IMG/VR virus record: IMGVR_UViG_2609460221_000003
Reading direction: 5' to 3' (one strand)
DNA: 26,287 bases
DNA from: a virus
Lineage: Duplodnaviria; Heunggongvirae; Uroviricota; Caudoviricetes
Shown: piece after piece, positions 14,042-16,627 of the stretch
How positions within the stretch are numbered: the stretch's first letter is position 1
Layout of the letters: each line of letters begins with the position of its first letter
The notes under the pieces: generated by a model
Databases searched by the model: none
What the model saw: the letters and a program-made list of their open reading frames with translations, nothing else
What the model was told of the DNA's origin: nothing
Translations under genes and position numbers: made by a program

Positions 14042-16627
14042 ATGTGGAACCTTTTACGGCGAACCCGAAAAAACCAGAAATCAGGACGTGACGTAAGAGA
14101 GGCGGGCTGGACCAGCCTGTTTCAGGCGGTGGCTGAGCCCTTTTCCGGCGCCTGGCAGCAGGGCGTGAAAGCCGATCCTGAAGCCGTCCTCTCCTTTCAT
14201 GCGGTGTTTGCATGTATTTCGCTGATATCCCAGGATATCGCCAAAATGCGGCTGCGTCTTATGCAGACGGATGCGCATGGGATACGCAGGGAAACGCGCC
14301 GGGGGGATATTGCCCGCCTCTGTCGTCGTCCCAACGCCCAGCAGAACCGCATCCAGTTTTTTGAACTGTGGCTGAACGCCAAACTGCGTCACGGCAATAC
14401 GGTGGTGCTGAAAATCCGTAATGCCCGGGGGCAGATCAAAGAACTGCGTATTCTGGACTGGAGCCGGGTTGAACCTCTGGTGGCGGATGACGGCGAGGTG
14501 TTCTACCGCATCACGCCGGACCGGAACTGCGGGATCACGGAGGCGGTGACGGTGCCTGCCCGGGAAGTGATCCACGACCGGTTTAACTGTTTTTTTCATC
14601 CGCTTATAGGATTGCCGCCGGTGTATGCCGCCGGGCTGGCGGCCACGCAGGGGCATCATATTCAGGAAAATTCGACGTCTTTTTTCAGAAATGGTGGCAG
14701 GCCGTCCGGGGTGATTGAGATCCCCGGCAGTATTACGGAAGAAAATGCGAAAAAACTGAAGAGCAACTGGGACAGCGGGTATACAGGCGAAAATGCGGGG
14801 AAAACGGCCATTCTGAGCAACGGGGCAAAATACAACCCCACGACGTTTTCACCTGTGGATGCGCAGACGGTGGAACAACTGAAGATGACCGCTGAAATTG
14901 TCTGTTCGGTGTTCCGTGTCCCGGCCTACAAGATTGGCGTGGGACAACCGCCTTCCAGTGACAACGTGGAGGCGCTGGAGCAGCAGTATTATTCCCAGTG
15001 CCTGCAGACGCTGATTGAGTCCATTGAACTGTTACTGGATGAGGCGCTGGAAACGGGGGAAAACGAGAGTACAGAATTTGATGTCACCACGCTGCTGAGA
15101 ATGGACAGTGAGCGGCGCATGAAAACGCTGGGGGATGCGGTGAAAAATACGCTTCTCACGCCCAATGAGGCCCGTAAACGGGAGAACCTGCCGCCCCTGG
15201 CCGGCGGTGATGCACTGTATCTTCAGCAGCAGAACTACAGTCTGGAGGCGCTGTCCCGTCGTGATGCCCGTGAGGATCCGTTCTCGTCTGCCGGGAAAAC
15301 AGTTTCATCACAGCTGCCTGACGGCGCATCTGACGGTAATAAGGCAATCAGTGAAACAGAGCATGATGCGGTGAAAGCGATGTTCAGGGGGGATACTGAG
15401 AAAATGACGGAACGGGAACTGTCCATTATTCGTGCACTGGGAGAAGAATTCTCCACAGTGCTGGCGGATTTACAGCGCACATTTGAGGGGAAGATGGCCT
15501 CGCAGGCACAAGCGTTTGAAGAGAAACTGACTTCCCTGTCGGCGGTATTACAGAAGCATGTGACGGTGGATGAGGTGCGTCCGGTTCTGCAGGCGATGGT
15601 GGATGACGCTGTGGGGGCCATTCCGGTACCGCGTGATGGTCGTGATTATGATCCGGATGTACTGCAGCAGGCGGTGAATGATGCGGTCGCAAATATTCCG
15701 CAGCCGGCGGACGGTAAAAGTCTCACCCCGGATGATGTGCGTCCGATGCTTGAACAGATGGTGAAGGAGGCTGTAAGCCATATCCCTGTTCCGCGTGATG
15801 GTCGTGACTACGATCCGGAAGTACTGCAGAAGGCGGTGAATGATGCGGTCGCAAATATTCCGCAGCCGGCGGACGGTAAAAGTCTCACCCCGGATGATGT
15901 GCGTCTGATGCTTGAACAGATGGTGAAGGAGGCTGTAAGCCATATCCCTGTTCCGCGCGACGGTCGTGACTATGATCCCGATGTTCTGCAGAAGGCGGTG
16001 AATGATGCGGTCGCAAATATTCCGCAGCCGGCAGACGGTAAAAGTCTCACCCCGGATGATGTGCGTCCGATGCTTGAACAGATGGTGAAGGAGGCGGTAA
16101 GCCATATTCATGTTCCGCGTGATGGTCGTGACTACGATCCGGATGTTCTGCAGAAGGCGGTTCTGGATGCGGTGAGTGCCCTGCCGGCTCCGCAGGACGG
16201 GCGTGATGCCACGGCTCTGGAAATACTCCCCGCCATTGACGATCAAAAATCCTTTCCCCGGGGCACGTATGCCACACACCAGGGCGGACTCTGGCGGGCG
16301 TATGAAAAAACGCACGGGATGCGGGGATGGGAATGCCTGGTTGACGGGGTGGCGGATATTGACGTCAGCATGACGGGTGAGCGGTTGTTCTCTGTGGTGG
16401 TCCGGCAGAGCAGTGGCCAGCGTACGGAAAAAACATTTTCCCTGCCGGTGATGCTCTACCGCGGTGTGTTCAGAGCCGGTGAAACCTACCACCCCGGCGA
16501 TACGGTGACGTGGGGGGGCTCGCTGTGGCACTGCAACAGTATGACCGAAGATAAACCCGGAGAAGCTCATTCATCAGCCTGGACCCTGGCTGCAAAACGT
16601 GGGCGGGATGCAGGAGGCGGAAAATGA
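14042..16627 (+). CDS. Portal protein (HK97 family) with about 400-aa C-terminal extension containing tandem repeats
   Basis: 861 aa; N-terminal about 450 aa has portal character (LTPNEARKRENLPPL motif region); ATG 14042 with GGAG at 9-nt spacing; stop overlaps the next gene (ATGA). Confidence 0.8.
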   Translation: MWNLLRRTRKNQKSGRDVREAGWTSLFQAVAEPFSGAWQQGVKADPEAVLSFHAVFACISLISQDIAKMRLRLMQTDAHGIRRETRRGDIARLCRRPNAQQNRIQFFELWLNAKLRHGNTVVLKIRNARGQIKELRILDWSRVEPLVADDGEVFYRITPDRNCGITEAVTVPAREVIHDRFNCFFHPLIGLPPVYAAGLAATQGHHIQENSTSFFRNGGRPSGVIEIPGSITEENAKKLKSNWDSGYTGENAGKTAILSNGAKYNPTTFSPVDAQTVEQLKMTAEIVCSVFRVPAYKIGVGQPPSSDNVEALEQQYYSQCLQTLIESIELLLDEALETGENESTEFDVTTLLRMDSERRMKTLGDAVKNTLLTPNEARKRENLPPLAGGDALYLQQQNYSLEALSRRDAREDPFSSAGKTVSSQLPDGASDGNKAISETEHDAVKAMFRGDTEKMTERELSIIRALGEEFSTVLADLQRTFEGKMASQAQAFEEKLTSLSAVLQKHVTVDEVRPVLQAMVDDAVGAIPVPRDGRDYDPDVLQQAVNDAVANIPQPADGKSLTPDDVRPMLEQMVKEAVSHIPVPRDGRDYDPEVLQKAVNDAVANIPQPADGKSLTPDDVRLMLEQMVKEAVSHIPVPRDGRDYDPDVLQKAVNDAVANIPQPADGKSLTPDDVRPMLEQMVKEAVSHIHVPRDGRDYDPDVLQKAVLDAVSALPAPQDGRDATALEILPAIDDQKSFPRGTYATHQGGLWRAYEKTHGMRGWECLVDGVADIDVSMTGERLFSVVVRQSSGQRTEKTFSLPVMLYRGVFRAGETYHPGDTVTWGGSLWHCNSMTEDKPGEAHSSAWTLAAKRGRDAGGGK
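15568..16210 (+). repeat. In-frame tandem repeat, 162-bp unit (54 aa, two about 27-aa half-units), about 4 copies, inside the portal gene
   Basis: GATGATGTGCGTCCGATGCTTGAACAGATGGTGAAGGAGGC recurs at 15731, 15893 and 16055 (period 162 bp); protein repeats PVPRDGRDYDPDVLQKAVNDAVANI / PQPADGKSLTPDDVRPMLEQMVKEAVSHI. Confidence 0.85.

Follow-up and report, generated by a model that had tools for sequence, protein, structure and literature searches.

The locus examined here raises the question of why a phage portal gene should encode a protein about twice the usual length. It lies in a stretch of 26,287 nucleotides (nt) from the virus record IMGVR_UViG_2609460221_000003 (Caudoviricetes), which is referred to as the window. 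The open reading frame (ORF) in question, at 14042–16627 on the plus strand, is single and uninterrupted, encodes 861 amino acids (aa) and shows no internal stop or frame break in the ORF listing. This continuity had been stated in a first-pass annotation of the letters alone, in which the ORF was read as an HK97-type portal protein with a long repeat-bearing extension that could project inside the capsid or at the neck. The answer reached below is that the ORF very probably joins an ordinary portal to the product of the next gene, here called X, through one extra guanine. This high confidence applies to the anatomy and fusion origin of the protein; where X sits in the particle is a separate and more tentative matter.

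To establish what the N-terminal half represents, profile and structure matches were considered. PF04860 matched aa 54–382 (E 6e-81, 272.5 bits against a cut-off of 39.1) and TIGR01537 matched aa 45–388 (E 2e-104, 349.5 bits against a cut-off of 112), with the solved portals 9lbn (E 3e-28), 8cez of HK97 (E 4e-20) and 6tba of RcGTA (E 3e-11) aligning to aa 43–420. The separate portal of Salmonella phage FSL SP-016 is 68% identical to that of the window over 451 aa. By these matches residues 1–454 are an ordinary HK97-family portal, as first proposed, and a regular member of the group containing HK97 gp3 and the RcGTA portal. The difference lies in what follows, as solved members of about 390–430 aa end shortly after the crown, whereas here 407 further residues are gained by read-through into the next gene. 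PF28083 was also listed for many partial proteins comprising portal plus partner and for no stand-alone partners; it probably describes a part of the portal.

The fused ORF is 99.5–100% identical to that of Stx phage 2851 (Pankowvirus) and to those of Escherichia coli chromosomal prophages, where it is annotated as 'phage portal protein'. The identical 861-aa protein has been recorded from 122 contigs, and the region is present in 1246 of 5426 complete E. coli genomes, often in several copies. In phage 2851 the module runs terS, terL, protease-capsid fusion, small ORF, portal(-X), Ad1 adaptor and head closure protein. The fused allele was also found within an otherwise intact morphogenesis module, in a complete genome with an identical fused portal and with all neighbouring genes intact.

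To investigate the remainder of the protein, residues 421–861 (a 441-aa query) were searched against 1.8 billion cluster representatives (50% clusters), giving 5549 matches at E ≤ 1e-3 and 608 at E ≤ 1e-30. Most matching proteins are 250–550 aa long, start with methionine and contain no portal. The stand-alone protein P0121 aligned to query positions 35–438 of 441 (the query starting at ORF aa 421), and the nearest stand-alone members begin MNERELS.IKALGEE, precisely at Met455 of the window (MTERELSIIRALGEE). The profile phrog_1289 matched the window protein with an E-value of 2e-193. This 331-position profile carries the name "portal protein" and spans stand-alone proteins from end to end (P0142: 1–331/331). 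A separate X gene directly follows the portal gene in Salmonella phage FSL SP-016, Pseudomonas phage PAJU2, Rhizobium phage RHph_X2_26 and EBPR siphovirus 3, the first two having the module order of the window and a 4-nt overlap of portal and X. Split examples also occur in E. coli itself, in Stx1_499, whose 454-aa portal is followed by a 353-aa protein at an ATGA overlap of 4 nt, and in an O158:H23 strain. From these comparisons residues 455–861 are taken to be the product of a neighbouring gene of the PHROG 1289 family and not an evolved appendage of the portal, although in the window X is not a separate polypeptide, the run of six guanines placing it in the portal frame. Two separate genes, the arrangement that by the first-pass annotation's own reckoning would refute it, are thus present in sister phages and not in the window sequence.

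The same evidence bears on the proposal that portal and extension make up one purpose-built protein, the extension being an appendage that projects into the capsid or at the neck. The ORF is indeed uninterrupted in both the window and phage 2851, and PGAP gives one 'phage portal protein' in hundreds of complete genomes. Against this, most relatives by far, among them near-identical E. coli prophages, have X as a gene of its own, as does the ancestral arrangement, and it is a 1-nt insertion that makes the join, just ahead of an intact start codon and a Shine-Dalgarno-like run. The built-in appendage of the first-pass annotation is therefore considered very unlikely.

The names in the databases follow the fused protein. 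NCBI, UniRef and PHROGs all call stand-alone partners of 300–420 aa (e.g. P0271–P0382) 'phage portal protein', and Klebsiella partners are named 'phage gp6-like head-tail connector protein' despite having neither domain. A fusion of the Klebsiella X to a gp6-like adaptor, as the NCBI names would imply, was rejected, as the 402-aa proteins are plain stand-alone X starting MNERELSLIRALGEEF. The misleading portal label appears to have spread from the fused alleles. The sequence is common and is already in the databases under this name. Pfam and PHROG scans of X and 28 homologues found no functional family beyond a weak CBM_5_12 and a sub-threshold Collagen match, and NCBIfam gave nothing. When the PDB was searched by sequence, using the whole protein and a profile built from 69 sequences of X, the matches were limited to portals, to designed helical repeats that resemble the repeats in composition and to weak chitinase modules. 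In the literature on the phage 2851 portal and in virion proteomics of PAJU2, FSL SP-016, SppYZU01, PD0307 and RHph_X2_26, no mention of X was found.

The point at which the two genes are joined was located by aligning the window with split relatives. In the window and in phage 2851 the junction reads CAGGGGGGATACTGAGAAAATGACG (aligned junction sequence TTCAGGGGGGATACTGAGAAAATGACG); that of Stx1_499 has one G fewer and a single substitution and is otherwise identical across the aligned stretch. With five guanines (G5) the portal frame ends at a TGA overlapping the partner ATG, and with six (G6) it enters the ATG at 15404. The ancestral portal stop is retained in the window, in another frame, as the TGA at 15405–15407 of an ATGA overlap. 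The portal of FSL SP-016 likewise ends at a TGA overlapping an ATG, and the annotated split genes of the loci L005, L006 and L002 overlap by 4 nt. The site of the G5/G6 difference lies 12 nt upstream of the partner ATG. Across 80 IMG/VR loci all fused ORFs were G6 and all split pairs of the E. coli group G5, a correspondence that had no exceptions in about 57 loci, and exact matches to the junction in IMG/VR gave G6 on 37 viral contigs and G5 on 23. As read from these alignments, the fusion is one extra G in a G5 tract, which brings into frame two genes that are normally translationally coupled. The run (AGGGGGG, 11 nt before the ATG) looks like the Shine-Dalgarno sequence of the partner gene. 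The coordinates of the junction and of the other features are collected in Table 1.

Table 1. Features of the fused portal-X locus, with positions in the window, strand and the basis of each assignment.
Feature	Position (nt)	Residues (aa)	Strand	Basis
Fused ORF, portal plus partner protein X	14042..16627	861 aa plus stop	+	ORF listing
Ancestral portal gene part, HK97 family	14042..15403	1-454	+	Profile and PDB matches
Flexible acidic portal tail		405-454	+	Portal part of fused ORF
G6 homopolymer run joining portal and partner frames	15387..15392		+	Sequence, alignments with split relatives
Internal ATG, start of the stand-alone partner gene	15404..15406	Met455	+	Starts of stand-alone homologues
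Long N-terminal helix of partner (predicted)	15404..15556	455-505	+	AlphaFold2
Repeat region, about 8.5 half units of about 27 aa	15557..16207	506-722	+	Register print-out, AlphaFold2
Near-identical tandem array	15629..16161		+	Tandem Repeats Finder, period 162 bp
C-terminal all-beta domain, Trp/Gly-rich (predicted)	16208..16624	723-861	+	Confident all-beta AlphaFold2 model
CBM5/12-like fold (putative)	16454-16594	about 805-851	+	Fold similarity to solved CBM5/12 modules
Head-tail adaptor, gp6-like, Ad1	16624..16950		+	PF05135 (E 2e-7); phage 2851 annotation

Both alleles circulate in lambdoid and Stx prophages of E. coli, sometimes on identical flanks. Two 880-bp flank haplotypes carry both G5 and G6, where the minority calls may be single-contig sequencing errors, and one more pair of G5 and G6 flanks differs by 2 nt. 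Most G6 alleles are found on a few related haplotypes. This distribution points to a G tract that is prone to slippage with some recurrence, together with descent and recombination.

It could be suggested that the tract is a programmed or contingency switch, in which slippage or heritable G5/G6 variation yields both free portal and X and the fusion, in the manner of the tail chaperones G/GT. A fused product reading ...GDTEKMTEREL would indeed result in a G5 phage if the P-site tRNA slipped by −1 on G GGG G, both alleles are common and occur on identical flanks, and both states are seen at several repeat-copy classes. However, split relatives from outside the E. coli group do not keep the run. 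The site reads GAGGA in FSL SP-016 and GGGAG in the O158:H23 strain and is unalignable in PAJU2, G5 being found only in the E. coli group. Since the G-run is not kept in distant split relatives, a conserved programmed frameshift is argued against and was rejected as a candidate. A canonical X XXY YYZ heptamer and an obvious stimulator are both absent, a length of 5–6 nt is short for a contingency locus, and the concentration of G6 alleles on few related haplotypes fits descent plus recombination. A switch of either kind is thus regarded as improbable.

The possibility was also weighed that the fusion in the window is a homopolymer sequencing error and the repeat number a product of mis-assembly. 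The window does hold seven Ns and single-base indels relative to phage 2851 which break its capsid, tail and tape-measure genes. Single-base indels were located at 12827, 18116 and 20797 and Ns at 17698 and 22068, with further Ns at 8685, 9408, 16746, 21776 and 24397, and they split the protease-capsid gene (11894–13830), the major tail protein region and the tape-measure gene (19618–22860) into several ORFs. A complete E. coli genome that is 100% identical to the window over 15302–16627 keeps all of the split genes intact, so the indels and Ns are probably assembly or sequencing errors and not prophage decay. Against an error at the junction itself, G6 and the same copy number occur in phage 2851 and in complete long-read E. 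coli genomes (99.9–100% identity), in addition to the 37 G6 contigs of IMG/VR and the 122 contigs with the identical protein. An artefactual fusion is accordingly the least probable of the explanations considered, and scarcely credible.

The extension had been described at first pass as 162-bp tandem repeats built of half units of about 27 aa, and this description was borne out by Tandem Repeats Finder, which reported 3.3 copies at 15629–16161 with a period of 162 bp, 94% matches, no indels and a score of 961. A degenerate half-period of about 75–81 bp was also detected. In a 54-aa register there are three near-identical double units and a diverged fourth, with a degenerate half unit ahead of them. 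The placement first given to the extension fits overall, its start at 15568 being some 10 nt inside this first degenerate half unit. Each half unit consists of an amphipathic helix followed by a proline-rich loop, I-P-x-P-x-D-G-[RK], with paired half units making up the 54-aa unit, and the net charge of the repeat region is −19.

The number of repeats varies among related E. coli prophages, in line with the slipped-strand copy-number change anticipated in the first-pass annotation, or with unequal exchange. E. coli-type partners of 245, 353, 407 (the window), 461, 515 and 569 aa were found, plus a 185-aa-offset class, making seven length classes. The steps are of exactly 54 aa or 162 bp, and the classes are seen in fused and split states alike. 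Protein clusters and complete genomes gave repeat numbers of −1, 0 and +1 units. These comparisons assign the 162-bp repeats to X and show them to be gained and lost in whole units. The repeat number of the window is the commonest class in complete genomes, and the collapse of repeats during assembly, about which the first-pass annotation had cautioned, is therefore unlikely here. Across the family the length of X ranges from about 170 to more than 860 aa. It should also be mentioned that Klebsiella homologues (P0332 and P0373), which as stand-alone proteins begin MNERELSLIRALGEEF, have their own near-identical repeats in three 54-aa units, and that P0212 has about 25 units of the form LPxPEPLPDIxxMVxxAV. 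Near-identical units that are specific to a lineage imply independent expansion or concerted evolution in each lineage.

To obtain an indication of its shape, the whole partner was modelled with AlphaFold2 from a 69-sequence alignment. A long helix was predicted at X residues 3–50 with a predicted local distance difference test score (pLDDT) of about 90. The repeat region was predicted as eight helices of 13–17 aa separated by 12-aa proline-rich loops and not packed against one another, with pLDDT values of 40–65. At this low confidence the region may be either a solenoid or a coiled coil. The Trp/Gly-rich terminal domain that had been noted from the sequence is present at aa 723–861, and its C-terminal part resembles in fold the solved carbohydrate-binding modules (CBM) of the CBM5/12 type. 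X shares with these modules a small beta fold and a conserved aromatic-rich motif (GDTVTWGGSLWHC...W), and differs in the beta subdomain of about 70 aa, itself without a clear relative, that lies ahead of the module. The score of the window protein against PF02839 is 19.1 bits, under the gathering cut-off of 26.2 bits, which is passed by the homologues P0125 (29.8 bits) and P0382 (26.6 bits). X is acidic throughout the family, with a median isoelectric point of 4.9. Taken together, X is predicted to consist of an N-terminal helix of about 50 aa, an acidic chain of short helices of variable length and a beta domain with a CBM5/12-like end. A link to head filaments of the Caulobacter phage phiCbK type was looked into and rejected, the hits being matches of 70 aa to the CBM-like tip within tail proteins.

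The association of X with the portal was followed through 80 species-representative genomes collected by portal alignment from Alpha-, Beta- and Gammaproteobacteria and a few other phyla, 77 of which had enough flanking sequence. A homologue of X stood at or adjoining the 3′ end of the portal gene in 72 of these 77, one of them being fused (L166, a metagenome-assembled genome of Sphingosinicella), and the start codon lay within 20 nt of the portal stop, mostly overlapping it, in 66 of 71. A second fusion lineage is represented by P0212 (1237 aa), with three distinct sequences on separate long contigs. In the window the fused ORF ends in an ATGA at 16624–16627, where its stop codon shares bases with the ATG of the Ad1 adaptor gene, so that portal, partner and adaptor form one translationally coupled chain. 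When the identity of the C-terminal domain was compared with that of the portal, values of 66 vs 68%, 69 vs 69%, 44–50 vs 48–49% and 29 vs 39% were obtained. As the divergence of the domain tracks that of the portal, it does not behave as a host-range determinant.

Proteins with a helix and IPxPKDGKD repeats (hhalign probability 96–99%) were also found after lambda-type portals (PF05136) in Oceanospirillum phage PD0307 and Shewanella phage SppYZU01, with the protease and capsid genes coming next. This suggests a wider superfamily with exchangeable tips. The genes in question (L088, 4929–6059, in PD0307; L089, 3998–5095, in SppYZU01) encode, besides the IPxPKDGKD repeats, a coiled coil, a collagen-like segment and a C-terminal domain of about 200 aa that is beta-rich and of a different kind.

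From its near-obligatory synteny, its translational coupling, its placement among prohead genes and its repeatedly tolerated fusion to the portal C-terminus, X would lie on the crown side of the portal. In solved portals the C-terminus lies in the crown, inside the capsid. It is proposed that the N-terminal helix of X binds the portal crown on the side facing the capsid interior, and that X enters the particle at prohead assembly. The repeat chain may serve as a flexible spacer with no strict length requirement, and the conserved C-terminal domain may bind a host-invariant target, either a component of the phage or, once released, a glycan such as peptidoglycan. In G6 phages each portal subunit would bear X covalently through its flexible tail of about 50 aa, which the particle would tolerate, and free X may still arise from the internal ATG at Met455. 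Twelve copies of X would amount to about 540 kDa, which we estimate from partial specific volume and the dimensions of the lambda capsid to be roughly 1% of the capsid volume, so that space is not an obstacle.

Among known systems, the closest parallel is with the MuF proteins and SPP1 gp7, whose genomic slot X occupies and whose physical slot it probably shares. SPP1 gp7 binds the portal and is inside the capsid, the MuF gene lies immediately downstream of the portal gene, and MuF proteins combine a conserved N-terminal anchor with C-terminal domains that vary (PMC5576092). X has the same synteny and translational coupling and an occasional covalent fusion to the portal. It differs in having neither PF04233 nor PF06152, in its anchor, which is a single predicted helix of about 50 aa, and in bearing a tandem-repeat spacer and a CBM5/12-like tip in place of a toxin or nothing. 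As the defining MuF domain is absent, X is not a member of the MuF family and the resemblance is positional and hypothetical. A second comparison can be made with the portal of P22. Its barrel is a C-terminal helical extension of about 120 aa into the capsid interior and is intrinsic to that portal family. The first 50 or so residues of X are likewise confidently predicted as a long helix right after the portal tail, whereas the extension here is a different gene with repeats and a beta domain, and no homology was detected in the PDB search.

A number of observations weigh against placing X inside the capsid. The fold of its C-terminus is that of a carbohydrate-binding module, and its structural neighbours among phage proteins comprise tail fibres, tailspikes and collagen-repeat proteins. 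Collagen-like G-X-Y runs close the sequence of some homologues, and short runs occur in the relatives P0122, P0129, P0151, PD0307 and SppYZU01, all under the Pfam Collagen cut-off; the window protein, with its KRGRDAGGGK terminus, has no run of G-X-Y repeats. A freely varying repeat number fits better with exposed fibres, of which it is more typical, and the confidence of the AlphaFold2 model in the repeat region is low. Pfam scans of the window protein and 28 homologues found no MuF domain, no homologue of X was found in the PDB by sequence, and literature searches found no paper on the X family. The fusions may also be accidents, neutral or slightly harmful, in prophages seldom under selection for the quality of their particles. 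Phage 2851, which carries the fused allele, is reported to be viable (Strauch et al. 2008).

Several of these points would be accommodated if X were an external and probably trimeric fibre of the head or neck, with a coiled-coil anchor, an adjustable shaft and a carbohydrate-binding tip aiding reversible attachment to glycans. The gene would then merely travel with the portal, and the G6 copy would be trapped or wasted in the head, as a loss of function or a neutral change perhaps rescued at Met455. Like T4 fibritin, the phi29 head fibres and collagen-like tail fibres, X has an anchor, a segmented helical shaft and a globular C-terminus, with collagen-like stretches in its relatives; a fibre would also be in keeping with the CBM fold, the fibre-like structural neighbours and the freely varying length. 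There is, however, no sequence homology with these fibres, and an external location is argued against by the slot of the gene and by its fusion to the C-terminus of the portal. With that C-terminus inside the capsid, three independent fusions in otherwise intact modules are awkward for a fibre. Unlike typical accessory fibres X is near-obligatory beside its portal clade, and with lambda-type portals it stands among the prohead genes and not the neck genes. Its C-terminal domain is conserved like the portal from E. coli to Rhizobium, unlike host-range determinants. An external fibre is a serious rival, somewhat less probable than a portal-bound internal minor head protein, which is itself held tentatively, at a little under an even likelihood. 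For the fusion origin and this functional placement weighted together, the account given here is the best explanation available, for and against which the balance is about level.

Some neighbouring features of the window were also recorded. A small ORF of 73 aa (13875–14096) lies between the capsid gene and the portal gene, overlaps the start of the latter by 55 nt and recurs, conserved, in phage and E. coli annotations as a 222-nt 'hypothetical protein'. The major tail protein (18025–18876) has a C-terminal immunoglobulin-like domain, the phage 2851 annotation being 'immunoglobulin domain-containing protein', and this domain is a second accessory module on a structural protein of the virion, which may bind carbohydrate. 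A 27-bp tandem repeat in two copies of 85% identity was found at 10052–10105, near the 3′ end of the small terminase gene (9609–10172).

As regards the wider meaning of the locus, thousands of database entries named "phage portal protein" are an uncharacterised partner and not portals, and this partner is near-universal beside one large clade of HK97-type portals across Proteobacteria. The locus is carried by prophages of E. coli including O157:H7 and ST131, and inducible Stx phages, in which fused and split alleles and different lengths of X occur naturally, provide a ready genetic series for the function of the partner. The polymorphic 162-bp array and the G tract can break short-read assemblies and could serve as typing markers. 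In its boldest form, which is judged improbable, X would represent a new and widespread class of portal-tethered head protein, an acidic repeat-tunable chain with a glycan- or peptidoglycan-binding module kept on the crown and released through the tail at infection. In E. coli prophages the G5/G6 tract would then toggle X heritably between a free, ejectable state and an anchored, retained one, as a phase switch on the composition of the virion. Were X a fibre instead, the finding would be an ordinary one. If X is a portal-bound protein that is internal or ejected and carries a glycan-binding domain, it would be a new element of genome delivery in siphophages.

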